Origin: Acidobacteriota bacterium
GTDB lineage: Bacteria; Acidobacteriota; Vicinamibacteria; Vicinamibacterales; UBA2999
Direction of reading: 5' to 3'
Assembly (NCBI GenBank): GCA_046726375.1
Contig: JBKPAJ010000023.1
Span: 258-64,257, forward strand
DNA length: 64,000 nucleotides
The notes beneath the pieces were generated by a model. The model did not search any database. It had not been told where the DNA came from and saw only the letters and a program-made list of their open reading frames with translations. The position numbers were made by a program, and so were the translations under genes. How positions within the stretch are numbered: the first letter of the stretch is position 1; every line of letters begins with the position of its first letter. Of this stretch, positions 17,439 through 62,710 are shown in pieces.

Positions 17439-17590
17439 AGTTCAAAGTTCAAAGTTCAAAGTTCAAAGTTAGTGATTGAGTTAAAAGTTTGAAAGTTCCC
17501 AACTCCTCAACTTCCAATTTCCAACTTCCAACTTTCCAACTTTCCAACTTTCCAACTAACTTTGAACTTTGAACTTTGAACTTGTAACTT
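17439..17590. repeat. Inverted tandem heptamer array (AAGTTCA)n ... (TGAACTT)n
   Basis: Fills the dcd-hisS gap; the two arms are reverse complements, with a C-rich (ccaactt/t) core. Confidence 0.9.
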
Positions 17591-17592
17591 GT

Positions 17593-18147
17593 TCAGATCT
17601 TCGGCAGCGTCACTCCACGCTGCGCCTGATACTTGCCGGCCTTGTCCTTGTACGAGACCTCGCACGGCTCGTCGCTCTGAAAGAACAACACCTGGGCGAT
17701 GCCCTCATTCGCGTAGATCTTTGCCGGGAGCGGCGTCGTGTTCGAGATCTCGATGGTGACGTGCCCTTCCCACTCGGGCTCGAGGGGCGTGACGTTCACG
17801 ATGATGCCGCAACGCGCATAAGTGGACTTGCCAAGACACACGGTGAGCACATCGCGCGGAACTCGGAAGTACTCGATGGTGCGGGCGAGCGCAAACGAGT
17901 TGGGCGGCACGATGCAACAGTCGGCCTTGATGTCCACAAACGATCGCGGATCGAACTTCTTCGGATCGACGACCGAGTTGTAAACGTTGGTGAACACCTT
18001 GAAGTCGTCCGCCACGCGGATGTCGTAGCCGTACGACGACAACCCGAACGAGACCACACCCTCGCGCACCTGACGATCCTCGAATGGCTCGATCATGCCG
18101 TGCTCGAGCGCCATCCTGCGGATCCACCGATCGCTCTTTATTGCCAT
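17593..18147 (-). CDS. dcd: dCTP deaminase
   Basis: [35 protein letters not shown]. Confidence 0.96.
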
Positions 18148-18150
18148 ATG

Positions 18151-18238
18151 TTTGGTCTGGTTGATCCAGTTCGTCAGGTAGTACCAGTAAAAGCGTTGAC
18201 CCGCCCGACCTGCCCAAGCTGCCCGAAACCGCCCTACC
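18151..18238. repeat. Degenerate inverted 9-bp array
   Basis: ggtctggtt/cgtcaggta-type units face cccgcccga/cctgcccaa/gctgcccga units. Confidence 0.55.
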
Positions 18239-18428
18239 TTCTCAGGAGCAATCCCAACAGCGTCAACACCACGCTCACCAGAATCGATGTCGTAATTGGC
18301 AAGTAGAACGTGAAGCCCTCGCGTCGAATGACAATGTCGCCGGGAAGCCGCCCCAGCGGCACGCCGAGCCAGATCAACGCGCCGATCGCCACGATGACCA
18401 GCCCGATGACGACGAGCGCTTGACCCAA
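18234..18428 (-). CDS. DUF2905-like small membrane protein
   Basis: LGRLPGDI...[12 protein letters not shown] motif; TTG start at 18428 chosen so that it does not overlap ndk. Confidence 0.85.
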
Positions 18429-18435
18429 GGGACCG

Positions 18436-18849
18436 TTACCTGAGTTCCATGCCGCAGAAGAAGTAGCCGAGCTCGAAGGCGGCCGTGTCGGGCGCGTCGG
18501 ATCCGTGCGTCGCGTTGTTGTCGATCGACGCGCCAAATTCCTTGCGCAGCGTCCCGTCCGCGGCCTTGGCTGGATCGGTGGCGCCCATCAGGTCGCGCCA
18601 CTTGCGGATCGCGTCGGGGGCCTCGAGGCACATCACCACGCTCGGGCCGGAGGACATGAAATCGGTGAGCCCGCCAAAGAACGGCCGCTCGCGATGCACG
18701 TGATAAAAGCCTTCGGCTTCAGCCTTCGACATGTGAATCATCCGCATCGCGCGCACGTTGAAGCCTGCCTCCTCAACCCGCGCGAGTATGCGGCCCACGA
18801 CACCCTTCCGCACCGCGTCGGGCTTGATGATGGCAAATGTGCGTTCCAT
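18436..18849 (-). CDS. ndk: Nucleoside diphosphate kinase
   Basis: [29 protein letters not shown]. Confidence 0.97.
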
Positions 18850-18951
18850 ATATCCGAACGATTATAGCCCGCCCGGCTCAGCCGCTGGCTTGGTCCCACG
18901 CTTGCAGTTTGCTCATCGGGCGGACGTGTGTTTGCCCGAGGAAGGGACATC

Positions 18952-19455
18952 ATGACGCACTTCAAGCACGCTGTTACGCTCTTTGCCGCGGCCGCGTTCC
19001 TCGCTGGCTCCGCCGCTGCGACGGCTCAACAAAAGCCGGCCGCGATAGGCTCGACCGTGACGATCGTCTCGTGCGTGGAGAAAGCGCAAAACAGCAGCGG
19101 CGACAAGTTGGTGCTCACGCATGTCGCCGATGTGCCGACGCAGCCGGCCACCCACGGGCGCGTCGTTTACTGGATTGAAGATGTCAGCAAGCTGAAGCCG
19201 CACGTCGGACATCAGGTGCGCATCACCGGCAAGGTCGCCAACGTGGACAAATCAGAGATCGAAGTCAGGAACAAAACCACCGGCGCGGTCGCTGAAATCG
19301 AGGGACACGGCACTGAGGTGAAGACGACGCCGGACAAGGCGCGCGTCTCCAATCCAGGTCAGACTCCAAAAGAACAGGACATCCCAACGACGGTCGTAAC
19401 GCTCGCGCTCGACAAGGTGGAGATGGTCGCTGAACGCTGCAAGCTCGTGCAGTAA
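18952..19455 (+). CDS. Secreted hypothetical protein, probable two-Cys OB-fold family
   Basis: Signal peptide; VTIVSC...HVGHQVRITG...MVAERC; GAAGGGA RBS. Confidence 0.75.
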   Translation: MTHFKHAVTLFAAAAFLAGSAAATAQQKPAAIGSTVTIVSCVEKAQNSSGDKLVLTHVADVPTQPATHGRVVYWIEDVSKLKPHVGHQVRITGKVANVDKSEIEVRNKTTGAVAEIEGHGTEVKTTPDKARVSNPGQTPKEQDIPTTVVTLALDKVEMVAERCKLVQ

Positions 19456-19460
19456 CTCGC

Positions 19461-19654
19461 GACTCTGGATTCCTGGAGATCTGGTGATTTGGAGCACATC
19501 TGGAGTTCTCCACATCATGGAGATCAGCAAATCTAGAAAATCTCGAGATCTGCTCCAAATCCATCTCTCCAAATCTCCATCTCTCCAAATCTCCATCTCT
19601 CCAAATCTCCATCTCTCCAAATCTCCATCTCTCCACCTCTCCACGTTTCCAGAT
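19461..19654. repeat. Inverted tandem octamer array (TGGAGATy ... AAATCTCC)
   Basis: Includes several perfect 16-bp atctctccaaatctcc units; lies between convergent genes. Confidence 0.9.
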
Positions 19655-20530
19655 TCACCCTCGCAGTACCTCAGCGACGGCGCTACCTATGTCCGCAGGC
19701 GACTTCACAACGCGAACGCCGGCAGCTGTAAGTGCGGCCATCTTTTCGGCCGCGGTGCCTTTGCCGCCGGCGATGATTGCACCGGCGTGACCCATCCGAC
19801 GCCCAGGCGGCGCCGTCTGACCCGCGATGAAGCCGACCACCGGCTTTCTGAAATTCGCCTTGATCCACGAGGCCGCTTCTTCTTCCGCGGAGCCGCCGAT
19901 TTCGCCGATCATGACCACGGCTTCGGTGTCGGCGTCGTTGGCAAAGAGCTGCAGCGCGTCGATGTACATCGTGCCGATCAACGGATCGCCGCCAATGCCA
20001 ACGCACGTCGTCTGGCCGAGGCCGAGCTTTGTGAGCTGATCGATCGCTTCATAGGTGAGTGTGCCGCTCTTCGACACGATGCCAACGCACCCTTCCTTGC
20101 AGATATGGCCGGGAATAATGCCGGCCTTGGCCTTGCCCGGCGAGATGATGCCGGGGCAGTTCGGCCCGATGAGGCGGGTTTGGGGATGCGATTTGAGAAA
20201 TGTGAGCGCCTTGAGCATGTCGAGCGTTGGAATGCCCTCGGTGATGCAAACCAGGAGGGCGATGCCAGCATCCGCGGCTTCCATGATGGCGTCGGCGGCA
20301 AACGCCGGCGGCACGAAGATCACTGACGTGTTCGCGTCTGTCGTCCTCACCGCTTGCGCGACGGTGTCGAACACCGGAAAGCCTTGGTGGACCGTGCCGC
20401 CTTTACCCGGAGTGACACCGCCGACAACGTTGGTGCCGTAGTTCTTTGCCTCCAAGGCGTGAAAAGTTCCTTCGCGTCCGGTCAAGCCCTGAACAATCAG
20501 CCGCGTGTTTTTGTCCAGAAGTACTGCCAA
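19655..20530 (-). CDS. sucD: Succinyl-CoA ligase alpha subunit
   Basis: [25 protein letters not shown]. Confidence 0.97.
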
Positions 20531-20542
20531 GTCCCAACCCCT

Positions 20543-20567
20543 GTAGAGGCCGGCCTTCAGGCCGGCC
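20543..20567 (+). repeat. GTAG-foot REP-like palindrome
   Basis: gtag-a-ggccggcc-ttca-ggccggcc. Confidence 0.75.
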
Positions 20568-20572
20568 GTTTA

Positions 20573-21733
<1,161 letters not shown>

Positions 21734-21743
21734 AGGGAATATT

Positions 21744-21911
21744 GTCGTCGACAGTCAACGGTCGCCGGTTGAGGGGGAGGTCGACAGTCGTCAGTCGCCG
21801 GCCGACCTCTGAAAAACAGTCGACAGGAACCAGCGACCCCGGCGACTGGCGACCGTTGAGTGGCGACGGCTCTATACCGACCGGGCGACTGCCGATCGTT
21901 GACTGGCGGCA
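21744..21911. repeat. Inverted tandem heptamer array (GTCGmCR ... YGkCGAC)
   Basis: gtcgaca/gtcaacg/gtcgccg/gtcgtca face ggcgact/ggcgacc/ttgactg. Confidence 0.8.
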
Positions 21912-21914
21912 GCT

Positions 21915-22847
21915 TTATACCTTGATAACGTCGACTAATTCTTTAACCGCGCCTGCGGACTTCTGCAGTGCCGCGTTCTCGTCCGCCGTCAGCTTGACCT
22001 CGATGATCTGCTCGACGCCGCGGGCACCAAGTTTCACCGGCACACCCACAAAGAGGTCGCGGATGCCGTACTCGCCCTGCAGATACACCGAGCACGGCAT
22101 GATTTTCTTCTGGTCCTTGAGAATCGCTTCCACCATCTCGGCGGCGGAGGCACCGGGTGCGTACCACGCGCTCGTGCCCACCAGTTTCGTGATCTCCGCG
22201 CCGCCATTGGCGGTGCGCTCCGAAATCGCGGCAATGCGCTCGGCCGGCAACAGTTCAGTAATCGGAATTCCCGCAACGGTCGAATAGCGAGGCAACGGCA
22301 CCATCGTGTCGCCGTGGCCGCCGAGCACGAACGCCGACACATTCTCGACCGACACGTTCAATTCCATCGCGATAAAGGTGCGCATGCGCGCGGAGTCGAG
22401 CACGCCGGCCATCCCGATGACGCGCTCGCGCGGCAACTTGCTCAAACGATAGACGGCCTGCGCCATGGCGTCGAGCGGGTTGGCGACCGGCACGATGATG
22501 CAGTTCGGAGAGTGCTTGACGATTTCGGCCGTGACGTCCTGCATGATCTTGTAGTTGACCGAAAGCAGGTCGTCGCGGCTCATGCCCGGCTTGCGCGGCA
22601 CGCCCGATGTGATGACGACGACGTCAGAGCCGGCAGTCTCGGCAAAATCTTTGGTGCCGACACCCACAACGCGTGCCGCCGATCCTTCGATCGGGCACGA
22701 TTCGTAGATGTCGAGCGCGATGCCGGCGGCTTTGGTCTCGGCGATGTCGACGATCACGACGTCGGCGAGTTCCTTTTGCGCGATCGCGCGCGCGACCGTG
22801 GCCCCAACGTTGCCCGCGCCGCCGACGACTGTCACTTTTCGGTTCAT
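21915..22847 (-). CDS. mdh: Malate dehydrogenase (LDH-like)
   Basis: [33 protein letters not shown]; upstream of sucCD. Confidence 0.96.
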
Positions 22848-22996
22848 ATGAGCTCCGCGTATTAGGTCAGATCGCCCCGCGCTCGATCGGCGGCGTCCAC
22901 AGATTCTGTGGAAAACCGTGTTGAAAACAGCGCGTCAACAACATGTAACGGACGCGTTTTCTAAGAAAACAGCGTATTGCACCATAGATGGTGAAC

Positions 22997-23220
22997 GGTC
23001 CCACGTAGGTTCCGCACCGGGGTTCCGCACGGCAGCTCACGGCGGTTCCTCACCTACGTTCCTCACCTCGGTTGCTCACGGGCCTTCGCGTGCGTTCGGC
23101 ACGTTGGTGCTAGAACCCACGTCAACTGGCGTCAAGAACGAACGTAAAGAACCTCCGTGAACCACTGGAAGGAACTCACGTGAAGAACTGCCATGAGGAA
23201 CCCACGTGATCCGCCCACGG
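22997..23220. repeat. Degenerate inverted ~13-bp tandem array between divergent mdh and serA
   Basis: ggttccgcaccgg/ggttccgcacggc/ggttcctcaccta/cgttcctcacctc face gtgaagaac/atgaggaac-type units. Confidence 0.7.
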
Positions 23221-23265
23221 TGCGCAGTCCGCGTGGGCGCACAAACTGTGGAATTATATCTGACG

Positions 23266-24846
23266 ATGAAAATCGTAGTCGCCGATGAACTGCCGGCGTC
23301 CGCCCTCGAGTTGCTGCGCGCCGAAGGATGGACTGTTGATGCGCGCAGCGGACGGAAGCCGCCGGAGCTTGCGGCCGATCTCGCCGACGCCGACGCCATT
23401 GTCGTCCGGAGTGCCACCAAAGTCACTGCCGATCTGATCGTCGCGGCGCCGCGGCTTCGCGCGATCGCGCGCGCGGGCACCGGCGTCGACAACGTCGATG
23501 TGGACGCAGCGAGCGCGCGCGGCATCGTGGTGATGAACGCGCCTGGCGCAAACAGCATCAGTGTGGCGGAGTTGGCGATGGCACAGATGCTGGCACTTGC
23601 CCGAAAGGTTCCCGCCGCTGACGCCTCGATGAAGCAGGGTAAGTGGGATAAGAAGAGTTTTCTCGGCGAAGAGATTCGCGGCAAGGTGCTCGGCCTGGCC
23701 GGTCTCGGCCGCATTGGACAGGAAGTGGCACGTCGCGCGCGCTCGTTCGAGATGATGCTCATCGCTCACGACCCCTTCATCAGCGCGCAAGTGGCACGCG
23801 ACCTCGCCGTGGAGCTCGTCTCGCTCGACGCGTTGTGCGAGCGCGCCGACTTTCTATCGCTGCACATGCCGTCGACGCCGCAGACGCGTCATCTCTTCAA
23901 TGCCGAGCGGCTCGCGCGCTGCAAGAAAGGCATTCGCATCATCAACACGGCACGCGGCGAATTGATCGATGAGGACGCGCTCGCGGCAGCCATCCAAAGC
24001 GGTCAGGTCGGCGGCGCCGCCCTCGATGTGTTCGAGCAGGAACCAACGACCGATCAGACGCTCCAGCTGCTGCCGCAGGTAGTCGCCACACCGCACATTG
24101 CGGCCTCCACGCGCGAGGGTCAGGAGCTGGTGGGCGTTGAAACAGGGACGGCCCTTCGCGATTTTCTGAAGAACGGGATCATCCGCAACGCCGTCAATTT
24201 TCCGTCGGTCGCGGCGGACGAATTCCAGCGGCTGCAGCCGTACGTTGCGCTCGCGCGACAGCTTGGCTGCCTGCTCGGACAAATGGGCGACGCGCGCATC
24301 GAGGGCGTGAGCGTGCGCTACTACGGCGAGCTTGCACGCGCGTCCAATCCACTGATCCTGAGCGCTGTGCTCGTCGGCCTGTTCCGCGCGATCCTCTCCG
24401 AGTCGGTGACACCGGTGAATGCGCTTGCTGTCGCCAAGGCGCGCGGCATCGAGATTACTGAATCGCACAGCAGCCGCAGCCGCACGTATGCCAGCCTAAT
24501 TTCAGTCAAGCTGATGACCAGCGCCGGCGAGCGCTGGGTCGAAGGAACGGTTGTCCGCGACCAGCCGCGGCTTGTGCTGCTCAACGGCGTAGACGTCGAA
24601 GCGCCGCTCGATGGCACGATGCTGCTGCTGATGAACAACGATCAACCGGGCGTGATCGGCGCCGTCGGGACGATTCTCGGCCGCAACAATGTCAACATCG
24701 CAAGTTTTGCGCTCGGACGGCGGCCGGATGGCGCGGTGGGCGTCGTGAATCTGGACGATCCGAATGGAACGGGTGTCTCGAAGGAGATCGTCGACGAGAT
24801 CCGCCAGGCGCCCGGGATTAATGCGGTGTGGGTGGCTCGGGTGTAG
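23266..24846 (+). CDS. serA: D-3-phosphoglycerate dehydrogenase
   Basis: VRSATKVT, RAGTGVDNVD, GLGRIG, TPHIAAST, C-terminal ACT domain; ATG at 23266. Confidence 0.96.
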   Translation: MKIVVADELPASALELLRAEGWTVDARSGRKPPELAADLADADAIVVRSATKVTADLIVAAPRLRAIARAGTGVDNVDVDAASARGIVVMNAPGANSISVAELAMAQMLALARKVPAADASMKQGKWDKKSFLGEEIRGKVLGLAGLGRIGQEVARRARSFEMMLIAHDPFISAQVARDLAVELVSLDALCERADFLSLHMPSTPQTRHLFNAERLARCKKGIRIINTARGELIDEDALAAAIQSGQVGGAALDVFEQEPTTDQTLQLLPQVVATPHIAASTREGQELVGVETGTALRDFLKNGIIRNAVNFPSVAADEFQRLQPYVALARQLGCLLGQMGDARIEGVSVRYYGELARASNPLILSAVLVGLFRAILSESVTPVNALAVAKARGIEITESHSSRSRTYASLISVKLMTSAGERWVEGTVVRDQPRLVLLNGVDVEAPLDGTMLLLMNNDQPGVIGAVGTILGRNNVNIASFALGRRPDGAVGVVNLDDPNGTGVSKEIVDEIRQAPGINAVWVARV

Positions 24847-24930
24847 TAACCAGTCGCGCGTCATGCGTGCCGCGAGTACTCCCGCTACTGGCTACGGGCT
24901 ACTTGCTCTTTCACGCGAAGTAACCTCTCG
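24845..24930. repeat. Short degenerate inverted heptamer array (GTAGCCA/TGGCTAC type)
   Basis: agtaacc/agtcgcg face gctactg/gctacgg/gctactt. Confidence 0.4.
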
Positions 24931-25449
24931 CTACTTCATGCGAAGTAACCACTGCGCTCCTGCGGCGTCAGCGAGCGTCACGCTACTTTCTGTAATCTCG
25001 ACCACGCCGTAGCCCCTAACGGTCTCACCCACTTTCACAAGGTGCACGGTCACGCCATCCGAGATCACGGCAGTTCGCGCGGTGCCCGTCGTTCCGATTC
25101 CAGAGAGGCGCAGCGACGGGCCCGTGGCCACGGGCGCCGGTTGCGGTTCACTCGCGGGCGCGTTGGACATCGGAGCAGATCTCTCGGGCGCTGGCGCCAT
25201 CTCGCGCTCTCGCGTGCCAAACACAAACGGATTGCGCTTCGGAACCGGAGGCAGCGGCGCTGCTTGCAGCTTGAGATGCAGCTGTTCGTTGTAGGAAGTG
25301 CCGCTGGCCGTCTCGCGCGGTGTCTCTCGTGGCTGATCGCGCGGCGGCAACGCTTGCAATTTCGCAACGGGCGGCGACACGATCGACGCAAGCAGCCAGC
25401 CAGTGCTAAGCGAAGCCGCGACGATCAACGCAACGAACTTCGGCTGCAT
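24931..25449 (-). CDS. Hypothetical protein, PilP/GspC-like
   Basis: N-terminal TM segment, RNPF motif, Pro-rich linker, C-terminal L.GI...AVI...VKVGE...V.EI....V.L beta domain; start uncertain (25449 or 25464). Confidence 0.65.
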   Translation of the reverse strand: MQPKFVALIVAASLSTGWLLASIVSPPVAKLQALPPRDQPRETPRETASGTSYNEQLHLKLQAAPLPPVPKRNPFVFGTREREMAPAPERSAPMSNAPASEPQPAPVATGPSLRLSGIGTTGTARTAVISDGVTVHLVKVGETVRGYGVVEITESSVTLADAAGAQWLLRMK

Positions 25450-25494
25450 GATGGGAACCGGCACTATTCTACTGCGTTTGTGCTATGATTCGCC

Positions 25495-28741
<3,247 letters not shown>

Positions 28742-28749
<8 letters not shown>

Positions 28750-29701: not shown

Positions 29702-29708
29702 CACTCCG

Positions 29709-30926: not shown

Positions 30927-30951
30927 GAACGCCGAAAGCCACGCGTGACGC

Positions 30952-31212: not shown

Positions 31213-31543
31213 GTCTTACAAACCTCAAAACAGCCGTGTTTCCAAATCGCATGCCGTTACATAAACGTTTCTTTTCAGACACAAATGCGTTAAGTCCTGT
31301 GTTGGCAACACTTAAATCCCGACAGCTGATTGGCGGGTTGTAAGGTTTTCAGACACTGTCTCGCGGAATGCAGGCTAAAACCTGACTCGCGCCGGTCTGA
31401 TTTACCCCTTTAATTCACTTGGAGTTGATGATCGTGGCATTAAGCCGACCTCAGATTCGGGCCGAAAGTGGCATTGTTCGAACGTTCAACGCCGTTGGCG
31501 CTGCGAACTGAAGTGAGCTTGGGTTTAGGCTACGGATCAGCGC

Positions 31544-32002: not shown

Positions 32003-32069
32003 GTCGTCCTCCGTTTGGCTCAAGCTGATACGCAGCGGCCCTCGGTTGGCGCGTCATCGACGAGGACGC

Positions 32070-35897: not shown

Positions 35898-36524
35898 ATG
35901 ATACGCGCAGTGCGTGCATTCGCAGCCACTCTCATCGGAATCGCGCTGAGCGCACTCACGGTCCTTGCGCACGATGCAGAGAGGACACGCATCATGTTGT
36001 CCTTTCAGCACGACGGCAGCTTTGTGCTCAACGTCGCGAACGATCCAAATTGGCTGCTGCTCCGCCTCGAATCGTTTGCCGGCGGAGCCGTGCCGGCCGC
36101 AATTACGCCCCAAGCACGCGACGCGCGACTGCAGGAGCTTGGCGCCGTATTCATCGATCGCGTCGTGTTGTGGGTCGATGGAGACGAAATACGGCCCGAG
36201 TCTGCTGAATACGATCCGGCGGGAGCCGGGTTCGTTCTCCGCGGGCGGGTGCCGCGGGAGGCGCGAACCTTGCGATGGCTGTATGGACCGGTGATCGATC
36301 CCTACCCGCTCACGATTCGACGTGCAGACGGGCGATCAACGACGGAATGGATTGAAGGATCGAACTGGAGTGGAGTGATCGATCTCTCCGGTCAGTTCCG
36401 CCGCGCATACCAACCCGATCCCGTCCTAATCGTTGTCGCAGTATTTGCGATCGGCGTCCTCTGGCGTTTGCGCTCTGTAAAAGGGCCTGCCCCATTAGTT
36501 ACCGCGAAAGACAAAACGTGGTAA
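35898..36524 (+). CDS. Exported/membrane-anchored hypothetical protein
   Basis: Signal peptide ending VLA-HD and a C-terminal hydrophobic segment; ATG at 35898. Confidence 0.65.
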   Translation: MIRAVRAFAATLIGIALSALTVLAHDAERTRIMLSFQHDGSFVLNVANDPNWLLLRLESFAGGAVPAAITPQARDARLQELGAVFIDRVVLWVDGDEIRPESAEYDPAGAGFVLRGRVPREARTLRWLYGPVIDPYPLTIRRADGRSTTEWIEGSNWSGVIDLSGQFRRAYQPDPVLIVVAVFAIGVLWRLRSVKGPAPLVTAKDKTW

Positions 36525-36576
36525 CCGTGACACGCCGTTGTTACCAGTTCTAACTAATCGGGCACGCCCTTTTACA
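36476..36576. repeat. MITE-like element with 26-bp terminal inverted repeats
   Basis: tgtaaaagggcctgccccattagtta versus the reverse complement of 36551-36576 (2 mismatches). Confidence 0.75.
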
Positions 36577-39539: not shown

Positions 39540-39632
39540 AAAAAGGGGACAGGCCCCATTTCACCCGTTGCGAACAGGTCGCAAAGATTGAAAAGCTGTC
39601 GCAAAGATTGAAAAGGGGCCTGTCCCCTTTTT
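39540..39632. repeat. MITE-like element: 24-bp inverted repeats with an internal 18-bp direct repeat
   Basis: aaaaaggggacaggccccatttca / tgaaaaggggcctgtccccttttt; gtcgcaaagattgaaaag occurs twice. Confidence 0.8.
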
Positions 39633-42728: not shown

Positions 42729-42738
42729 GCGTCCTCAA

Positions 42739-42763
42739 GGCGGACCTGAAAGCCCGCCGCCAC
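42739..42763 (-). repeat. Degenerate REP-like palindrome
   Basis: ggcggacc-tgaa-agcccgcc-gccac. Confidence 0.55.
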
Positions 42764-42770
42764 ATGCTGG

Positions 42771-44510: not shown

Positions 44511-44522
44511 CAAGCCTCCCGC

Positions 44523-44547
44523 GGCGCGGCTGAAGCCGCGCCACTAC
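44523..44547 (-). repeat. GTAG-foot REP-like palindrome
   Basis: ggcgcggc-tgaa-gccgcgcc-actac. Confidence 0.75.
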
Positions 44548-44600
44548 CAATCGCGGTTCAGGCCGCGGCGCATCTCAGGCGCAGTGATTATAGAGGCAAC

Positions 44601-46653: not shown

Positions 46654-46660
46654 GATCGTG

Positions 46661-46749
46661 AGGCTTTCAGCTCTCAGCTTTCGGTTTTCAGCGCCCTTCG
46701 GCTTTCAGCGTTTTTGCTGACAGCTGATAGCCGACAGCCGATAGCTGTC
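46661..46749. repeat. Inverted tandem heptamer array (GCTTTCA)n ... (GCTGAyA)n
   Basis: gctttca/gctctca/gctttcg/gttttca face gctgaca/gctgata/gccgaca/gccgata. Confidence 0.85.
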
Positions 46750-46750
46750 G

Positions 46751-48499: not shown

Positions 48500-48512
48500 G
48501 ACTGCCAGTGGG

Positions 48513-49697: not shown

Positions 49698-49702
49698 GGC
49701 GA

Positions 49703-49852
49703 AAATTCCGAGGTTCCAAGTTCCTAGTTGCGAGTTCGTCGACCCGCGTTCCGTAGTTCTGACTTTCCGAAGTCAGGGTTCGACAGCCAGGATTCCCGAA
49801 CGACGGAACCCGGACTTTCGAACCCTGGAACTTCGGAACTCCGGAACCTCGC
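49703..49852. repeat. Inverted tandem 7-8-mer array (nGTTCC ... GGAACy)
   Basis: ggttcca/agttcct/agttgcg/agttcgt face ggaaccc/ggaactt/ggaactc/ggaacct. Confidence 0.75.
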
Positions 49853-49856
49853 GATG

Positions 49857-50903: not shown

Positions 50904-50949
50904 GGCCAGACCTTTTGAGTTCTCGTGTATGAACGTCCCCAAGTGCCGG

Positions 50950-51561: not shown

Positions 51562-51571
51562 TTCGCTCCAC

Positions 51572-55028: not shown

Positions 55029-55663
55029 CAGTTACCACCCCTGCCGGCCGGCTTGGCTGCCGGAGGCGGCGCCAGCCCTGCCATTTGAAACGTGCCTTTG
55101 ATGACGAAGCGGATCAGGTCGGGCCCGTTCTGCTGGCCTTGTGGCTGATGCTGGCCCTGCGCGACGGCGCTGTCGATGATTTCGACCGGCCGCTTGAAGT
55201 AGTGCGACGCTTCGAGGTTGCCGACGAAATCGGACAACGTCGTGAGCTGCAAGGTGCGGCCTTCGATCGTCACGTCGAAGCGGTCCTGCTTCATGCTCGT
55301 CAGCCACATCATGTCGGGCAGCGCGCGGCTCACCTGATCAACGATGTGCACCGGCGCGTTTTGACCCTTGCGAAGTTCGTTGATCAGCGTCTCGCGCTGC
55401 TCGAGTTGCGCGCGGGTCGCTTCCAGGCTGGCGAGTTGATTCAGCACTTCTGACAGCCGCTGCTCTTCACGGCGAGCGGCGTCGAGGTCGCGCGCGAGTT
55501 GCGCTTGCTGGTTTTGAATCGACCAGAAGCGCCAGCCGATGAGCAGCATGGTGATGATGAGAATGAAGCTGCTCGCGACCGTCATCTTCTGACCGACCTG
55601 CATCGGTCGGCCGACGCTCTTGGCGATGCGGCGCTCGCCCTCAGTGAGGTTGATGCGAATCAT
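55028..55663 (-). CDS. pilN: Type IV pilus assembly protein PilN
   Basis: MIRINL start, LPD.MWLT. Confidence 0.92.
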   Translation of the reverse strand: MIRINLTEGERRIAKSVGRPMQVGQKMTVASSFILIITMLLIGWRFWSIQNQQAQLARDLDAARREEQRLSEVLNQLASLEATRAQLEQRETLINELRKGQNAPVHIVDQVSRALPDMMWLTSMKQDRFDVTIEGRTLQLTTLSDFVGNLEASHYFKRPVEIIDSAVAQGQHQPQGQQNGPDLIRFVIKGTFQMAGLAPPPAAKPAGRGGN

Positions 55664-56721
55664 CGGTCGCCTACCCTTCGCAGCGCGAGACCGACCGCGA
55701 CAGCCGCGAGCGGCGCCATTTCGTCGGGGCTGGCAGCGAGCTTGTTGACGTCGAAGAGAATCTGCCGGAACGGATCGAAGAGCTCGACCTGCGTGTCGAA
55801 GCGCTCGCGCAGGCTTTCCATGAAGCCTTCAACGCGTGACGCGCCGCCGCTCAGCATGATGAGGTCGATGTGATCGCTCGAGGCCGTGGCCTTGAAGAAG
55901 TCGAACGTCTTCTCCACTTCGAGCAGCACGTTGTCGGTCATCGCGCGCAGCACCGGGCGCGCATCCTCGTAGCTCACGCCGTCGACGTTGTCGCGCTTCT
56001 TCAGGTCTTCGGCCGACTCGAACGGAAGACGGAGCTCTTTCTGAAGCGCTTCGGTAAACGCGTTGCCACCCATCGAGATGTCGCGCGTGAAGACCGACTG
56101 CGATCCGGCGAGAATGTTGATGTTGATCGCGCTCGCGCCGGCGTTGAGCAGCACCACCACCGCGTTCGACGAGTAGCCGTAATTGGCTTCGTAGGCGTTC
56201 TGCAGCGCGAACGCGTCCACATCCACGATCACCGGCGAGCGACCCGCCTGCGTGATCACGTTCGTGTAATCCGCGATCTTGTCTTTCTTGGCGGCGACGA
56301 GCAGCACTTCCATCGTCCCCTGGCCATCGCCGCCGCGCGCGCCGTTGATGATCTGGTAATCGAGATTGACATCCTGGATGTCGAACGGGATGTACTGCTC
56401 GGCCTCCCAGTAGATCGCCTCGGAGAGCTCGCTCTCGGTCATCACCGGCAACGTGATCTTCTTGACGATCACCGAGTTGCCGGAGAGCGAGGCGGCGACG
56501 TCCTTCCCCTTGAACTGCTTGGTCGAAAACAGGCGGCCTACCGAGTCGGTCACCGCGCCCGAGTCGATGATCGAGCCATCGACGATGCTGTCGGGCGGGA
56601 CCGGTTGCACGGCGATCGCAGAGACCCGATAATTCTTGCCGCTCGGCTTCAGCTCGATCGCTTTGACCGTGTTCGATCCGATGTCGAGCCCGACGAGGCT
56701 TTTGCTTCGGTTAAACAGCAC
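55660..56721 (-). CDS. pilM: Type IV pilus assembly protein PilM
   Basis: VGLDIGS, EAEQYIPF, DVDAFALQN, LSGG, AVAVGLALR; GTG at 56721 after GAAAGG. Confidence 0.95.
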   Translation of the reverse strand: MLFNRSKSLVGLDIGSNTVKAIELKPSGKNYRVSAIAVQPVPPDSIVDGSIIDSGAVTDSVGRLFSTKQFKGKDVAASLSGNSVIVKKITLPVMTESELSEAIYWEAEQYIPFDIQDVNLDYQIINGARGGDGQGTMEVLLVAAKKDKIADYTNVITQAGRSPVIVDVDAFALQNAYEANYGYSSNAVVVLLNAGASAININILAGSQSVFTRDISMGGNAFTEALQKELRLPFESAEDLKKRDNVDGVSYEDARPVLRAMTDNVLLEVEKTFDFFKATASSDHIDLIMLSGGASRVEGFMESLRERFDTQVELFDPFRQILFDVNKLAASPDEMAPLAAVAVGLALRRVGDR

Positions 56722-57099
56722 CCTTTCACTCGCTTTCCGAACGTTCGTCGCGAACATTCGCTCCTCCGCCGTTCACGAACTTGGCGGCCCGGGCTGACGG
56801 CCGAGCTCCGCAAACTCGATACCACCTCGTCCGTTCGTGCCAAATTCGTTGAAACTCGCCCGGAATGCCACTTTTCGTATCCGACGAGCTGGCCTGTGGT
56901 GAACGGCCGAGCTACAGAAATGCAATCGGCCGTACGAAATCTGGATTGCAAGCTGTGCAGTCTCAGAACACCCCATACCGCTTTGGGGAGACTGGCTCGT
57001 CCGGCTGAGTTATCGGCGGCAGAGCGCGATATATGAAAGACGCGGCAACTGCGGTGCGCGGCCCGAGCGATCATCGGGAGTCCAGATGCGCAGTTGGTC

Positions 57100-57220
57100 C
57101 CGAGCGAGCGCACACGAGTGTTGCGGTGAGCGAGCACAAGTGAGCCCTCCCCCTGAGCGAGCGAACGCGAGTCGACGGGCGAAAGGCTTGTCGTGAGCGA
57201 ACCGATGGAGTCGACCGGCG
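57100..57220 (+). repeat. Cluster of CTGAGC...GAGTCGA-type REP-like units
   Basis: ccctgagcgagcgaacgcgagtcgacggg, gtcgtgagcgaaccgatggagtcgaccgg and cccgagcgagcgcacacgagtg. Confidence 0.55.
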
Positions 57221-57222
57221 CT

Positions 57223-57251
57223 TTGACTATTCCGCCAACTCGTCGTATCAT
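57223..57251 (+). promoter_or_regulatory. Sigma70-type promoter of the rplM operon
   Basis: TTGACT-17 nt-TATCAT. Confidence 0.7.
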
Positions 57252-57453
57252 TTGCGTTTGCCGTCATCGAGACGGTCGATGTAATGGGGCGGCTTCGCCC
57301 TGTGGCGCAGCGTTCTTGTCCGCCCATCGCTGGAGCGGAGGGAAGCCGCGCCCTTGAAATCGCGTGGCTTGAACCACGCCTTTGTAGTGGCGCAGCGTTC
57401 TCAACCGCGCTCGCTTAAGCGGGGCGGAGGCCGCGCCGCCAGGATCCCTAACA

Positions 57454-57885
57454 ATGCGCAGTTTCGTTGCAACCCCGAAGACCGTGTCTCGCCGCTGGCA
57501 CGTCATTGACGCCGACGGCCAGGTCCTCGGCCGGATTGCTACCTGTGCGGCGCGCCTGCTTCAGGGCAAGCACAAGGCTACCTATACGCCGTTCCTCGAC
57601 ACCGGCGACCACGTCGTGATCGTGAATGCCGCGAAAGTGAAGCTCACAGGCCGCAAGGAAGACCAAAAGGTGTATCGCCGCCACAGCGGCTATCTCGGAG
57701 GCCTCAAGGAAGAGCGTGCCGGCAAAGTGCGCACGCAGCATCCCACGCGCCTCGTCGAAGAGGCCGTGCGCGGCATGTTGCCGAAGACAAAACTCGGGGA
57801 CGCGATGTATCGAAAGTTGAAAGTGTACGCGGGCAAGGATCACCCGCATCAGGCCCAGCAACCAACTGCTCACGAGGTGGCGTAA
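57454..57885 (+). CDS. rplM: 50S ribosomal protein L13
   Basis: WHVIDA.G.VLGR, GKHK..YTP..DTGD, RGMLPK. Confidence 0.98.
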   Translation: MRSFVATPKTVSRRWHVIDADGQVLGRIATCAARLLQGKHKATYTPFLDTGDHVVIVNAAKVKLTGRKEDQKVYRRHSGYLGGLKEERAGKVRTQHPTRLVEEAVRGMLPKTKLGDAMYRKLKVYAGKDHPHQAQQPTAHEVA

Positions 57886-57888
57886 ATC

Positions 57889-58281
57889 TTGGCAGCACTT
57901 CAGTACTACGCAACAGGGCGCCGCAAGGAATCAACGGCGCGGGTTTTCCTCCGACCGGGCAAAGGCACCATCACCGTCAACTACCGCGAGTTCGCCAACT
58001 ACTTCCCCACCGAAGCGTTGCGCGTGCAGGTTCGCCAGCCGCTGCAGCTCACCGAAGCGGGCGATAAATTCGACGTGGTGTGCACCGTGGACGGCGGCGG
58101 CGTCACCGGCCAGGCCGGCGCGATTCGTCTCGGCATCGCGCGCGCGCTCGTGGAGTTCAACGCGGAGCTGCGCCCTCGTCTGAAGAAAGAAGGACTGCTA
58201 ACGCGCGACGCGCGCGCCAAGGAGCGCAAGAAGTACGGGATGGCTGGAGCACGCAAGCGCTTCCAGTTCAGTAAGCGTTAA
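57889..58281 (+). CDS. rpsI: 30S ribosomal protein S9
   Basis: TGRRK, GGG..GQAGAIR, ends QFSKR. Confidence 0.98.
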
Positions 58282-58304
58282 CGCACGTTATGGATGGAGG
58301 ACAT

Positions 58305-59123
58305 TTGACCCCGCTCGCGATGAAAGACCTGCTCGAAGCAGGCGTGCATTTCGGCCACCAGACCAAGCGCTGGAATCCCAAGATGAAGCCCTACATCTTC
58401 GGGGAGCGCAGCGGCATCTATATTCTCGACCTCGGCAAAACGGTCCGGATGTTCAAGACGGCCGAAGATTTCGTGCGTCAGCTCGCGGCCGAGGGCAAGA
58501 CGGTGCTGTTTGTCGGCACCAAGCGGCAGGCACAGGACGTCATCGCGGAAGAAGCCACGCGCTCGGGCATGTATTACGTCAACGAGCGCTGGCTGGGCGG
58601 TCTCCTCACCAACTTCACGACCATTCAGCGCAGCATCGCGCGTCTGCGCGACCTCGAAGCGATGGCCACCGACGGCCGCTACGAGTTCATGCCGAAAAAG
58701 GAGATCGCGCGCGCGGAAAAAGAAAAGCGCAAGCTGCTGAAGAACCTCGAAGGCATCCGCAACATGTCGCGGCTTCCCGACGCGCTCTTCGTGGTGGACA
58801 CGCGCAAGGAAAAGATCGCGGTTGACGAAGCGCGCAAGCTGAAGATTCCCGTGATCGGTATCGTCGACACCAACTGCGATCCCGACGAAGTCGACTTCGC
58901 GATTCCTGGCAACGACGATGCGCTGCGAGCGATCCGGTTGTTTGCGGCACGCGTCGCCGACGTGATCCTCGACGGCCGCGGCGAGCGCGAATCCGCGCTG
59001 GCCGAACAGGCGCAGGCCGAGGCCGAAGCGGTGGCCGCCGAAGAGGCGAACCGTACGGTCCGGCCGGCTAACCTGCGCCGCCCGCAGCGCGCAAGCGAAA
59101 CGCCGACGCCGGCAACCCCATAA
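58305..59123 (+). CDS. rpsB: 30S ribosomal protein S2
   Basis: [22 protein letters not shown]; TTG start after GGAGG. Confidence 0.97.
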
Positions 59124-59146
59124 GTCCCAAGAGGGGTGAGTTTAGG

Positions 59147-59177
59147 AGCGCCGGCTGTATTTCGGCCGGCGCTTTTT
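59147..59177 (+). terminator. Intrinsic terminator/attenuator between rpsB and tsf
   Basis: agcgccggctg-tattt-cggccggcgct hairpin followed by a T-run. Confidence 0.7.
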
Positions 59178-59193
59178 CTGTACCGAGGAACCC

Positions 59194-59793
59194 ATGGCTA
59201 CGATTACTGCGGACCAAGTAAAACAACTTCGCGACAAAACTGGGGCGGGCATGATGGATTGCAAGACGGCCCTTACCGAATCCAGCGGTGACTTCGACAA
59301 GGCCGTCGAACATCTTCGCAAGAAAGGGCTCGCCTCGGCCGCCAAACGCGCGGGTCGCGCCGCGAAGGACGGCATGATCGGCCACTACATCCACATGGGC
59401 GGCAAGGTCGGTGTCCTCGTCGAGGTGAACTGCGAAACCGACTTCGCCGCGCGCACCGAAGATTTCCAGACGCTCGCGAAGGAACTCGCGATGCACGTCG
59501 CGGCGGCCGATCCGCGCTACGTCAAGCGCGAGGACATTCCGGCCGAGGTTGTGGAGAAGGAAAAGGAGATCTTTCGCGCGCAGGCTGCGGGCAAGCCCGC
59601 AAACGTCGTGGAAAAAATCGTCGAAGGCAAACTCGAGAGCTACTACTCGCAGGTGTGCCTGATGGATCAGCCCTCGGTCCGTGATCCGAACATTACGATC
59701 AAGCAGATGATCGCAAACGCCGCGGCGAAGACGGGGGAGAATGTGACAGTCTCGCGTTTTGTCCGATTCAAGTTAGGAGAGCTCGCTGAATAA
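59194..59793 (+). CDS. tsf: Elongation factor Ts (short form)
   Basis: [24 protein letters not shown]. Confidence 0.97.
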
Positions 59794-59797
59794 TGGC

Positions 59798-59892
59798 GAA
59801 TCTGGAGATTTGGCGATCTCGAGATTTGGAGAGGATTTGGTGATCAGGCCAGATCGTCTCCAAATCTCCACATCTCCAGATCTCCAAATTCA
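59798..59892. repeat. Inverted octamer array (GGAGATTT ... AAATCTCC)
   Basis: tggagatt/tggcgatc/tcgagatt face aaatctcc/acatctcc/agatctcc. Confidence 0.88.
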
Positions 59893-59902
59893 CGGACTAT
59901 AA

Positions 59903-60639
<737 letters not shown>

Positions 60640-60640
<1 letters not shown>

Positions 60641-60672
60641 AGTTACAAGTTCAAAGTTCAAAGTTCAAAGTT
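60640..60672. repeat. Single-arm AAGTTCA heptamer array
   Basis: aagttacaagttcaaagttcaaagttcaaagtt. Confidence 0.85.
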
Positions 60673-60686
60673 GAGGCAGTTGAGCT

Positions 60687-61256
60687 ATGGAAGCGAGTGA
60701 CATTAAGAGCTTGTTTGCCGAAGTCAAAAAACGGATGGATGGGCAAATCGACTTCGTCCGCAAGGAACTCGCCGGCGTGCGCACGGGACGCGCGACTACG
60801 GGACTGCTCGACAGCGTGCATGTCGACGCCTACGGATCGAAGATGCCCCTGAATCAGGTGGCGTCGCTCTCGGTGCCCGAACCCGCGATGATCATCGCGC
60901 AGCCGTTCGATCCCACGCTGATGGCCACGATCGAAAAAGCGATTCGCGCGTCGGATCTCGGCCTCAACCCGTCGAACGACGGCAAGGTGATCCGGATTCC
61001 GATTCCGGCGCTTACCGATGAACGGCGCAAGGAGCTGTCGCGTCACGTCCACAAGCTCACCGAGGAGGGCCGCAATCACATCCGTACCGTCCGCCGCGAC
61101 GCGAACGATAAGCTCAAAAAGATGCTGAAGGATCATCAGATCTCGGAAGACGACGAAAAGCGGGCGATTGCGGAGGTGCAGAAGATCACCGATCTGCACA
61201 TCAAGTCGCTTGATGATCTGCAGCAGAAAAAGGACGCGGAATTGCTAGGAAAGTGA
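60687..61256 (+). CDS. frr: Ribosome recycling factor
   Basis: RTGRA, YG...PLNQVA, LGLNP.NDG, LTDERRKEL. Confidence 0.97.
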   Translation: MEASDIKSLFAEVKKRMDGQIDFVRKELAGVRTGRATTGLLDSVHVDAYGSKMPLNQVASLSVPEPAMIIAQPFDPTLMATIEKAIRASDLGLNPSNDGKVIRIPIPALTDERRKELSRHVHKLTEEGRNHIRTVRRDANDKLKKMLKDHQISEDDEKRAIAEVQKITDLHIKSLDDLQQKKDAELLGK

Positions 61257-61261
61257 CACGT

Positions 61262-61434
61262 GAATGTGGAGATCTCGCGATCTGGAGATTTGGAGAAAAT
61301 GTGGAGATTTGGAAATGTGGAGACTGGGACATGTGGAGATCTTGAAATGTGGAGATTTGGAAAATCTGAAAATCTGGTGATCTCCAAATTTTCTCCAAAT
61401 CTCCACATCACCAAATCTCCAGATTCGGAGATCA
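61262..61434. repeat. Inverted octamer array (GGAGATkT ... AAATCTCC) with a longer left arm
   Basis: Roughly 14 G-rich units followed by roughly 6 C-rich units. Confidence 0.9.
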
Positions 61435-61441
61435 GCGCGCG

Positions 61442-62617
61442 GTGAGGTTTTTCACGCACCTAGAGTGTGCTTCTCAGTGCGGTGCGGGTCCCTTCAATCC
61501 GCGCGACCGTCACTTTCTCTGTCCTTCATGTGAACTGCCGCTCCTGGCCCGCTACGATCTGAACGCGGCGCGCGCGTGGCGGCGCGACTCGCTGCTCGGC
61601 CGCGAGGCGAACATGTGGCGCTATCGCGAGATGATGCCGCTTCTGCCAGGGGACACGGCGATCACGCTAGGTGAAGGGTTCACGCCGCTGCCCTGGGCGA
61701 AGCGTCTTGGACAGGCGCTTGGACTGCATCGCCTTTACATCAAGGACGAATCGCTCAATCCCACCAACTCGTTCAAGGCGCGCGGTCTGTCGGCGGCAAT
61801 CACCCGCGCGAAGGCGCTTGGCGCGGAGACCATTGCGTTGCCCACTGCCGGCAACGCTGGCAACGCCGCCGCTGCGTACTCGGCGGCGGCCGGCCTCGCC
61901 TGCAAGGTCTTCATCCCTCGCGACGCGAAGAGGCCCTTCATCGACGAGTGCCGGCTGTACGGCGCCGACGTGACGCTCGTCGACGGACTGATCACCGACG
62001 CCGGACGGATGGCGGCCGAACAGGGCAAACCGCTTGGTTGGTACGACGTGTCCACACTGAAGGAGCCGTATCGCGTCGAAGGGAAGAAAACGATGGGATA
62101 CGAGCTCGCCGAGCAGTTCGAGTGGCGCCTGCCCGATTGGATCATCTATCCAACCGGCGGCGGTACCGGACTCGTCGGGATGTGGAAGGCGTTCGACGAG
62201 CTCGAGGCGATCGGCTGGATCGAGCCCGGGCATCGTCCAAAGATGGTGTCGGTGCAGTCAACCGGTTGCGCGCCGATCGTTCGCGCGTTTGAAAGCGGAG
62301 CGCAACGCGCCGCGCCGTGGGCCGACGCCCACACGGCCGCCGACGGCCTGCGCGTGCCGCGCGCGATCGGCGATTTCCTGATCCTCCGCGCCATCCGGGA
62401 AAGCGCCGGCACCGCTGTCGCCGTTCCGGACTCGCAGATGATCGACGACATGATCGAGATCGGAAAGCACGAGGGGATCTCCGCCGCGCCCGAAGGCGGC
62501 GCCGCGCTGAGCGCGATTCGCAAGCTCGTCGTAGAGGGAAAGATTCAGCGCGACGAAACGGTGGTGCTGTTCAACACGGGCGGGGCTTTGAAGTACCTGG
62601 ATGTGTTGCGCAGGTAG
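61442..62617 (+). CDS. thrC: Threonine synthase
   Basis: LGEGFTP, NPTNSFKARG, PYRVEGKKTM, YPTGGG, FNTG. Confidence 0.9.
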   Translation: MRFFTHLECASQCGAGPFNPRDRHFLCPSCELPLLARYDLNAARAWRRDSLLGREANMWRYREMMPLLPGDTAITLGEGFTPLPWAKRLGQALGLHRLYIKDESLNPTNSFKARGLSAAITRAKALGAETIALPTAGNAGNAAAAYSAAAGLACKVFIPRDAKRPFIDECRLYGADVTLVDGLITDAGRMAAEQGKPLGWYDVSTLKEPYRVEGKKTMGYELAEQFEWRLPDWIIYPTGGGTGLVGMWKAFDELEAIGWIEPGHRPKMVSVQSTGCAPIVRAFESGAQRAAPWADAHTAADGLRVPRAIGDFLILRAIRESAGTAVAVPDSQMIDDMIEIGKHEGISAAPEGGAALSAIRKLVVEGKIQRDETVVLFNTGGALKYLDVLRR

Positions 62618-62620
62618 CTA

Positions 62621-62710
62621 AATCTCCAAATTCAAGAATCTCCAGATTTTCAATCTTCAACTCTCCAGATTCTCTCCAAATCCCCAGATCACCAGATCTC
62701 GAGATTCACG
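62621..62710. repeat. Single-arm octamer array (AAATCTCC type)
   Basis: aaatctcc/aaattcaa/gaatctcc/.../aaatcccc/agatcacc/agatctcg. Confidence 0.85.

Follow-up and report, generated by a model that had tools for sequence, protein, structure and literature searches.

Inverted pairs of short tandem arrays in intergenic gaps of an Acidobacteriota genome, and their possible relation to cassettes bearing four-helix-bundle genes

What are the short tandem arrays that lie head to head in the gaps between housekeeping genes of an Acidobacteriota bacterium, and how might they have come to be there? The question is raised by a 64-kb stretch of contig JBKPAJ010000023.1 (hereafter the window; G+C 62.5%), which is a housekeeping region of the genome. 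A reading of its sequence, here called the original prediction, had listed ten sites at which a G/T-rich array was said to face its reverse complement, with units that differ from site to site. Two explanations were offered, that a dedicated enzyme makes or maintains the arrays or that they are remnants of mobile cassettes flanked by repeats, and similar arrays were said to flank genes for four-helix-bundle proteins (TIGR02436). The heptamer arrays of cyanobacteria, Xanthomonas and Beggiatoaceae have no agreed origin or function, and the PF05635 proteins of rRNA intervening sequences have no known role.

The answer I favor, to which I give about an even chance, is that the gaps hold dispersed, gene-less hairpin elements of the same structural class as the arrays around PF05635/TIGR02436 genes, that is, empty cassettes or non-autonomous relatives of them. 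The evidence is taken below from the arrays themselves, through the orthologous gaps of related genomes and the genes found between paired arrays elsewhere, to the explanations that compete with this one.

Arrays that face each other across intergenic gaps

RNA folds of the ten listed sites were compared with 200 dinucleotide-preserving shuffles per site. Eight of them beat all 200 (z −3.15 to −8.07); the sites at 18151 (z +0.06) and 24845 (z −0.45) did not, and five array-free gaps folded as controls gave z +1.3 to −2.9. Dinucleotide shuffling was reserved for these hairpin z-scores, mononucleotide shuffles being used for the other z-scores, such as those of inverted partners and of the gene-flank tests described below. 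Tandem Repeats Finder (TRF; period 5–16, score at least 45) reports 12 merged arrays in the window, as compared with a mean of 0.05 and a maximum of 1 in 20 shuffles of 200-bp blocks, and 11 of the 12 sit in gaps, the remaining one (47076) being inside accB. The window contains 126 inverted repeats. The four longest coincide with the arrays that begin near 17439, 61262, 59798 and 21736, and their arms measure 42–56 nt and are 76–87% complementary; at 17439/17558 one stretch of 25 nt is 100% complementary. The claim that the arrays are real, paired and in excess of chance thus holds for most sites, with 12 arrays and eight significant hairpins behind it. The paired elements, and the two single arms without partner that belong to the same families, are these (window coordinates):

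17436..17592: paired element that exactly fills the dcd|hisS gap; G+C 0.34; fold of 17439–17588 at z −7.97 (0 of 200 shuffles as good); outer arms (AAGTTCA)4.6 and (TGAACTT)3.7, seen by TRF and as three inverted repeats; inner 8-mer array (CAACTTTC)6.6 at 17508, with a degenerate partner only.
19456..19654: GGAGATYT-family pair that separates sucD from a convergent hypothetical gene; z −4.25, beating all 200; right arm 19548–19643, a 16-mer in 6.1 copies with 93% matches, left arm 19473–19552 with 59% (TRF).
21734..21914: degenerate, GC-rich, weakly tandem pair of GTCGCCR/GTCGACA words in the mdh|sucC gap; inverted repeat of 42 nt at 76%; fold of 21736–21878 at z −3.77, beating all 200.
22990..23205: pair of ~13-mer arrays in the divergent mdh|serA gap (TRF 23045–23079 and 23172–23209); z −3.15 (0 of 200).
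46654..46750: pair that takes up the whole accB|accC gap; z −5.39, beating all 200; left arm of GCTTTCA-type words, right arm (GACAGCC/GATAGCC)3.9.
49698..49856: paired element in the gap between a PKD-domain gene and a TPR gene; fold of 49700–49849 at z −5.27 (0 of 200); GTTCC/GGAAC words, the right arm of period 8/16 (TRF and inverted repeat).
59794..59911: GGAGATYT-family pair between tsf and pyrH, from the base after the tsf stop codon; z −8.07, beating all 200; stem of ~40 pairs, inverted repeat of 43 nt at 84%.
60641..60686: solo arm (AAAGTTC)4.9 in the pyrH|frr gap, its unit the one found at 17439, 43 kb off; z −1.2.
61257..61441: paired element of the GGAGATYT family 3' of frr; fold z −7.77, beating all 200; left arm a 16-mer in 6.1 copies, right arm (TCTCCAAA)3.8; inverted repeat of 47 nt at 87%.
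62618..62716: solo arm of the GGAGATYT family, in the complementary sense, between a convergent gene for a pyridoxal phosphate (PLP) enzyme and pfk; its complement is the G/T arm at 61257, on the other side of the gene 61442–62617 (gene-flank z 7.4).

The elements span their gap from stop codon to start codon at dcd|hisS, accB|accC and tsf|pyrH, and likewise after frr, and their very stable stems interrupt the housekeeping operons dcd-hisS, mdh-sucCD, accBC and tsf-pyrH-frr. In composition six are foreign to their surroundings, with G+C of 0.34 (17436), 0.37 (60641), 0.40 (62618), 0.44 (61257), 0.47 (19456) and 0.48 (59794) as compared with 0.62 for the window and 0.60–0.74 for the array-free counterpart gaps. 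The statement that several are much more AT-rich than the genes is right for these six and wrong for the element at 21734 (G+C 0.64).

That the arms are tandem is likewise true of most sites. TRF finds the structure strong at 17439, 17508, 17558, 19548, 59857, 60639, 61263 and 61392 and moderate in the 13-mers at 23045/23172, the right arms at 46719 and 49804 and a 9-mer at 18198, but it reports no array at 21744–21914, where the best period-7 self-match is just 0.43. Periods of 8/16 are the commonest in the window, with 7, 9 and 13 also present; heptamer arrays occur only at 17439, 17558, 60639 and 46719. The two arms of an element may differ greatly in quality. They seem to slip independently, since one arm can be near-perfect (19548, 93%) and its partner degenerate (19473, 59%).

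At least six unit families can be told apart in the window, as expected from the claim that units differ between loci, but to call the units unrelated was an overstatement, because the four GGAGATYT loci (19.5, 59.8, 61.3 and 62.6 kb) share 11-mers and because AAGTTCA recurs at two loci 43 kb apart. Each pair of GGAGATYT loci has 10–36 11-mers in common, among them the variant units ATCTCGAGATC and ATCTGGTGATC, and elsewhere in the window these 11-mers appear in one other 100-bp bin, once. Within the window AAGTTCAAAGTT is restricted to 17.4 and 60.6 kb. The families are therefore dispersed ones.

One proposed regularity was dropped. G+T is higher in the 5' half than in the 3' half of every one of the eight window pairs, as the picture of a G/T-rich arm facing its complement has it, but by unit composition the order is reversed in 3 of 6 strict pairs from relatives and 1 of 2 from the window, and it is also broken in plasmid cassettes such as that of L092 (see below). 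The strict matching of units to their reverse complements captured the cleanest pairs only, gave false matches from GC-rich 6-mers in coding sequence, and was superseded by local alignment against shuffled flanks.

Orthologous gaps and the gene between the arms

The window was compared with 80 sucC loci from a genome collection, among the matches listed. Its closest sucC relatives among those matches are metagenome-assembled genomes (MAGs) of Vicinamibacteria or Acidobacteriota, at loci L004, L009, L010 and L001 (74–77% identity). The gene order sucC-sucD-...-ndk-dcd is kept in L004, L010 and L001 and continues to hisS-aspS in L004 and L010. L001 (CBINOO010000057.1) is labelled Acidimicrobiia, yet this order matches that of the window and the Vicinamibacteria loci, and its proteins are 75–84% identical to theirs; the label or the bin may be wrong. 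I have placed it with the Acidobacteriota on synteny and assigned the other loci to phyla by their labels, with a check of two genera.

The same architecture appears in these relatives with other units: GGAAATG-type and GATTTGA/GAAATCT in L001, AGTGCCA/CACTTAG in L004, and TAGTTGT/AACAACT in L009, which has a second pair at 5049. It is also found in L056, L073, L066, L039, L025, one Bacteroidota locus and one Planctomycetota locus, and L025 (Acidobacteriaceae) carries an array of AGCTRTC words akin to the element at 46654..46750. If one counts arrays with a significant inverted partner no more than 250 bp away, then the Acidobacteriota loci hold 20 in 485 kb (8 of 27 loci) and the loci of other phyla 2 in 876 kb (2 of 53), with 7 in the 64 kb of the window. 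The inverted-array hairpin is thus common in Acidobacteriota.

It also turns over at orthologous gaps. The original prediction had proposed a comparison of empty with filled sites, and the outcome was positive. Between sucC and sucD, the window and L004 have a GC hairpin of 42–45 bp, L010 a mere 12 bp of sequence, L001 a solo (GGAAATG)-type arm, L009 the TAGTTGT/AACAACT pair, and L003 a pair with a four-helix-bundle gene. Comparable variation among relatives is seen in three further gaps: downstream of sucD, between ndk and dcd, and downstream of dcd.

The gap in L003, an Acidobacteria MAG, brings the suggested connection with TIGR02436 into view. There inverted (ATTGGTG)n and (CAATCAC)n arrays enclose an open reading frame (ORF) of 126 aa between sucC and sucD. 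The ORF (L003:11202–11582) matches TIGR02436 at 84.4 bits (cut-off 24) and PF05635, the family of 23S rRNA intervening-sequence proteins, at 63.8 bits, and its product is similar to PDB 2rld. A tblastn search of plasmids with the L003 protein gave 31 records, and 16 of these were taken for taxonomic spread before their flanks were viewed. The resulting set of 17 genes comes, besides L003, from Cyanobacteriota, Chloroflexota, Spirochaetota, Bacillota and Bacteroidota, with Cyanobacteria dominating.

For each gene the 130 nt upstream were aligned with the reverse complement of the 130 nt downstream and scored against 60 shuffles. Inverted flanks appear at z of at least 4.7 in 15 of the 17, and for every one of the 17 genes the local period that fits best is 7 or 14. 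As a control, the same test on window genes was positive for 1 of 59, the gene between the 61.3- and 62.6-kb arrays, with a median z of 0. Of the 7 arrays in 50 kb of a Nostoc punctiforme plasmid, 6 belong to the surroundings or the body of its two four-helix-bundle genes, 5 of them as flanks and 1 in an annotated coding sequence. The suggested association is therefore borne out, and the inverted-array hairpin is the structure that encloses PF05635 genes across at least six phyla. A literature search, which covered few subscription journals, turned up no paper tying the four-helix-bundle family to flanking repeat arrays; a table in PMC5524665 places a four-helix-bundle gene between gmk and nadD in Flavobacterium.

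Units like those of the window are met around such genes: a TGGAGAT/GCAGAT-type unit flanks the gene of Nostoc flagelliforme (L087), and GGAGATTT words are present in L083. Judging from annotation tables and the ORF list, 14 of the 17 genes lie between two co-directional neighbors, as with DUF1156|HEPN, drmD|MmeI, hsdS|hsdR, cas2|cas1, fabH|M20 and resistance-nodulation-division (RND) adaptor|permease. In the plasmid loci (L081–L096) the gene is often inside a defence operon, as in the first four of these pairs, further sites of this kind being between a helicase and a methylase gene and upstream of cas1. In L096 it is absent from the annotation table.

Array pairs 200–2000 bp apart were also sought as flanks of other cargo. 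The sole exact reverse-complement pair besides that of L003 is in L049 (Myxococcales), at 5090–5760, an inverted-repeat element whose arms of ~130 nt end in GAGACGCT/GCGTCTCA arrays and whose loop of 330 nt holds three 45-bp tandem repeats and no convincing ORF. The remaining pairs at this distance are direct, GC-rich, or belong to neighboring elements.

The window itself has no PF05635 or TIGR02436 match in any of its 67 ORFs (Pfam, NCBIfam), and none between the arms, in keeping with the statement that it lacks a four-helix-bundle gene. A jackhmmer search of 9,271 ORFs found the family in L003 only.

Other features of the window

By Pfam and NCBIfam matches the window encodes mutL, ppdK, glyQS, recO, mgtE, era, ybeY, phoH, aspS, hisS, dcd, ndk, sucDC, mdh, serA, kdsB, pyrG, kdsA, kdsD, accBC, pilMNOPQ-like genes, rplM-rpsI, rpsB-tsf-pyrH-frr, a PLP enzyme and pfk. 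There are also arrays that are not hairpins, mostly of a GC-rich CCTGCCCNA 9-mer family with solo arrays at 4490–4558, 14131–14241 and 18198 and its complement at 9978–9997. Those at 4490, 14131 and 9978 lie outside the range 17439..62710 covered by the original prediction.

4483..4569: solo GC-rich 9-mer array, CCTGCCCTA, 5.6 copies, TRF score 65, 5' of the likely true start of ppdK (the TIGR01828 match begins at residue 30 of the long ORF).
9978..9997: short array of GCAGGTGG, 2.5 copies, between mgtE and era; the 9-mer family in complementary form.
14131..14241: solo arrays of the CCTGCCCNA-type 9-mer, 3' of aspS (TRF).
18190..18232: solo GC-rich 9-mer array, GACCTGCCC, 3.2 copies (TRF), not a hairpin (fold of 18148–18240 at z +0.06, 97 of 200 shuffles as good); 3' of a small membrane-protein-like ORF that is also found in L004 and L010.
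24847..24930: not a member, listed as weak by the original prediction; a 2.7-copy heptamer and a 25-mer duplication, z −0.45, 59 of 200 shuffles as good.

Short GC-rich hairpins occupy array-free gaps of the window at 20531–20572, 42729–42770, 44514–44600 and 6819–6932, and L004 has similar ones at 12068–12330 and 16766–16830. Their loops are CUGAAG, CUGAAA or UUGAGG, as in GGCCGGCC-TGAAGG-CCGGCC. They look like a REP-like family (repetitive extragenic palindromes), and they may represent the "empty-site" state.

The arrays were also considered as intrinsic terminators, an identity that was rejected: none of 13 terminator-like sites in 16000–25500 falls in an array gap. Canonical terminators appear to be distinct from the arrays in this genome, because terminator-like pairs are present at 39540–39632 and 36476–36576. 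In each an A-run, a GGGGACAGGCCCC-type stem and a T-run follow one another, the inverted arms matching at 88% over 34 nt and at 92% over 26 nt, and both have the appearance of intrinsic terminators of the ordinary bidirectional kind. At 39578–39615 there is also a direct repeat of 20 bp, which is perfect. Scanning 16000–25500 for promoter consensus gave no promoter-like site, and Rfam, run over the whole window, gave no family at gathering score, rRNA included.

Four other places deserve mention. The gene ybeY (12302–12937, minus strand) has a C-terminal extension of ~65 aa, a series of LSTRLRAG-like repeats of 8 residues each, which corresponds to a tandem repeat of 24 bp at 12331–12480 (5.9 copies, with period 48 and 72 readings as well); its TIGR00043 match stops at residue 143 of 211. 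The 696-bp gap 5' of rplM (56758–57453) contains repeated GAGCGAGCG-type words and two related stem-forming segments, with no Rfam match. The 331-bp gap at 31213–31543 has 49% G+C as compared with 62% for the genome, no array, a fold at z +1.3 and no Rfam match. At 16050–16132 there is a 41-bp direct duplication, 90% identical, with GTCGCCG heptamers, that extends across the gap from aspS to hisS and takes in the 3'-terminal part of the hisS ORF.

Origin of the elements and known systems compared

Each element consists of two short tandem arrays that face each other, or at times of one arm only, set directly against stop or start codons and presumably co-transcribed with the adjoining housekeeping genes. 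If the window copies derive from four-helix-bundle cassettes or share their means of movement, as the common architecture suggests, then an element would spread by copying or by recombination between loci, after which its arms may grow, shrink and drift independently through slipped-strand mispairing. Such slippage would leave the stem intact, because arms of one unit can pair in any register. By analogy with intervening sequences, stems of 25–56 bp in operon transcripts might act as RNase III cleavage sites or protect 3' ends, and in that way separate the cistrons on either side. Between the two explanations offered at the outset, the remnant of a repeat-flanked cassette is the better.

Several observations weigh against this reading. 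Neither a target-site duplication nor conserved termini were seen, by eye and without a formal test, and window elements, inverted arms apart, show by eye no conserved non-repeat body of the kind that marks a miniature inverted-repeat transposable element (MITE). Folds of 12 sites in sense and antisense are alike in energies and G-U counts and give no strand signal; both being about equally stable, nothing favors selection at the level of RNA over that of DNA. The flanks of the genes in L088 (z 0.3) and L095 (z 1.9) are not inverted, and gene-flanking arrays have periods of 7/14, whereas those of the window are mostly 8/16, with 9 and 13 as well. The genes of L083 and L085 have whole hairpins or direct repeats beside them in addition to the inverted arms: a direct repeat of ~110 bp on either side of the gene in L083 (800–1500), and a second pair with the same units just downstream of it in L085 (800–1550). 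Complete gene-less hairpins beside the gene imply that gene-bearing and gene-less forms coexist side by side. Lastly, a hidden Markov model of 16 members, run over 24,562 ORFs from all six frames (30 aa or longer), matched only L003. In the other 79 of the 80 related loci, as in the window, neither a four-helix-bundle gene nor a remnant of one was found; the link to the window copies therefore rests on shared architecture and one orthologous gap.

The main rival, which is possible though I think it improbable, is local origin only, by which slippage amplifies a short word that adjoins an intergenic hairpin already in place, the arms are held complementary by selection or by hairpin-templated repair, nothing moves, and four-helix-bundle genes merely prefer such loops as later guests. 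It fits the differences in unit between loci and between relatives, the fresh arm beside a degenerate partner (19548 at 93%, 19473 at 59%), the inner (CAACTTTC)6.6 array at 17508 without an equal partner, the lack of any terminal signature or target duplication by eye, and the fact that the window and L004 already have short GC hairpins where their sites are empty. In L009 the sucC stop codon is the start or a part of the unit, which fits local origin too and is a further point against dispersed elements. What local origin leaves unaccounted for is that identical units and variant units recur ~40 kb apart and nowhere else in the window, that six elements have G+C of 0.34–0.48 where array-free counterpart gaps have 0.60–0.74, and that genes of a single family are enclosed by this architecture in five other phyla.

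Other explanations fare worse. The arrays could be kept as binding sites for a regulator of translation or RNA stability, for many start right at a stop codon or stop within a few bases of a start codon, GGA is part of several units (GGAGATTT, GGAAAGTT, GGAAC, GGAAATG), and S1, cold-shock or CsrA-type proteins have been proposed for the TAACTGA heptamers 5' of start codons in Beggiatoaceae (MacGregor 2015, PMC4679880). I consider this unlikely: the units are too diverse for one protein (AAGTTCA, TAGTTGT and AGTGCCA lack GGA), pairing of the arms would hide single-strand sites, and occupancy of orthologous gaps is not conserved among relatives with 74–77% identical sucC, which argues against a conserved regulatory role. 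Less likely still is the dedicated enzyme, e.g. a reverse transcriptase with an Avd-like four-helix-bundle protein that copies a short template reiteratively. The idea draws on the tight association of the arrays with the PF05635 family and on the resemblance of PF05635 to Avd, the reverse-transcriptase partner in diversity-generating retroelements (PMC10053308). The window, however, has no reverse transcriptase, nuclease or four-helix-bundle gene, the plasmid annotations place no reverse transcriptase closer than 1 kb to any of the 16 genes, templating predicts one or a few units per genome rather than at least six, and the asymmetry of arms (93% vs 59%) is what slippage gives; I found no evidence for an array-synthesizing enzyme. 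Low-complexity repeats are prone to mis-assembly, but that the arrays are artefacts of this kind is scarcely credible, given that many projects, with assemblies made independently, and complete plasmids as well show the same architecture, with arrays always exactly between intact genes.

The reading as dispersed gene-less hairpins may be set beside several described systems. REPs and their inverted doublets (REPINs, REP doublets forming hairpins) are, like the window elements, short, dispersed, intergenic and palindromic, form long hairpins as inverted doublets, and occur inside operons. REPs have a role in protecting mRNA 3' ends, and REPINs are moved by REP-associated tyrosine transposases (RAYTs). 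A REP family, however, has one conserved sequence of 20–40 nt and not tandem arrays, as compared with units that vary by locus in the window, and Pfam and NCBIfam scans of the window ORFs gave no RAYT or transposase-like match.

The cyanobacterial short tandemly repeated repetitive (STRR) sequences and the TAACTGA repeats are, like the arrays, short, tandem, intergenic and often against start codons; most of them are heptamers, a period which only some of the window arrays have. The arrays seen on the plasmids may correspond to named STRR families. TAACTGA repeats are described from Beggiatoaceae, Cyanobacteria and Bacteroidetes as direct repeats 5' of start codons, including those of ribosomal-protein operons (PMC4679880), and in the latter two groups TAACTGA-type arrays and array-flanked four-helix-bundle genes both occur. 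The TAACTGA sets, however, have one unit, nearly always direct (169 direct, 1 indirect; PMC4679880). Closer in form are the intergenic GGGAATC heptamer arrays of Xanthomonas, with 70–75 convergent inverted pairs per genome (Rehm et al. 2015, PMC4692102). These bear out the suggested likeness to heptamer arrays of other phyla: they are often opposite-strand pairs able to form a stem-loop, and their length varies between related species (PMC4692102). They differ in having one G-rich, quadruplex-forming unit throughout the genome, whereas the window has at least six unit families without G-tracts (no unit has a run of three or more G, save the C-rich 9-mer family on its other strand), and the passages of PMC4692102 that describe them report no associated gene.

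It is tempting to unite gene-less hairpins, array-flanked four-helix-bundle genes, intervening sequences (IVSs) bearing S23p genes, and the heptamers of cyanobacteria and Xanthomonas in one undescribed class of selfish element that would invade transcribed spacers, be neutralized by excision of its stem at the RNA level, and have its arms made or reshaped at each site, possibly via an Avd-like protein. The window would then hold the non-autonomous form, unusually dense, in a phylum with no earlier report. I regard so broad a union as doubtful. Even short of it, the inverted-array hairpin ties two unexplained features together, and array hairpins should be considered in operon prediction and in the reading of transcriptomes for these bacteria.

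The nearest parallel is the IVS of 23S rRNA, as in Coxiella and Leptospira. That of Coxiella, called a selfish element by Warrier et al. (2016, PMC4990558), has a stem of 28 bp made of terminal inverted repeats, an S23p ORF in its loop and lower G+C than the genome, and RNase III cuts it in mid-stem. The window copies differ in lying between protein genes and not in a 23S rRNA helix, in lacking an ORF, and in having arms that are tandem arrays of 5–16-nt units. They agree in the long stem from terminal inverted repeats, in the transcribed, non-coding position, in G+C below that of the host and in sporadic distribution (PMC4990558), and related elements can carry a PF05635 ORF in the loop (L003, plasmids). 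Stems of IVSs are ~20–30 bp or more, and the window arms reach 42–56 nt at 76–87% and 25 nt at 100%; as in the four-helix-bundle cassettes, inverted arrays of short units abut coding sequence in all eight window hairpins. That gene-less hairpins are, by extension, of one class with the ORF-bearing intervening sequences of rRNA is the assignment best supported by this comparison.

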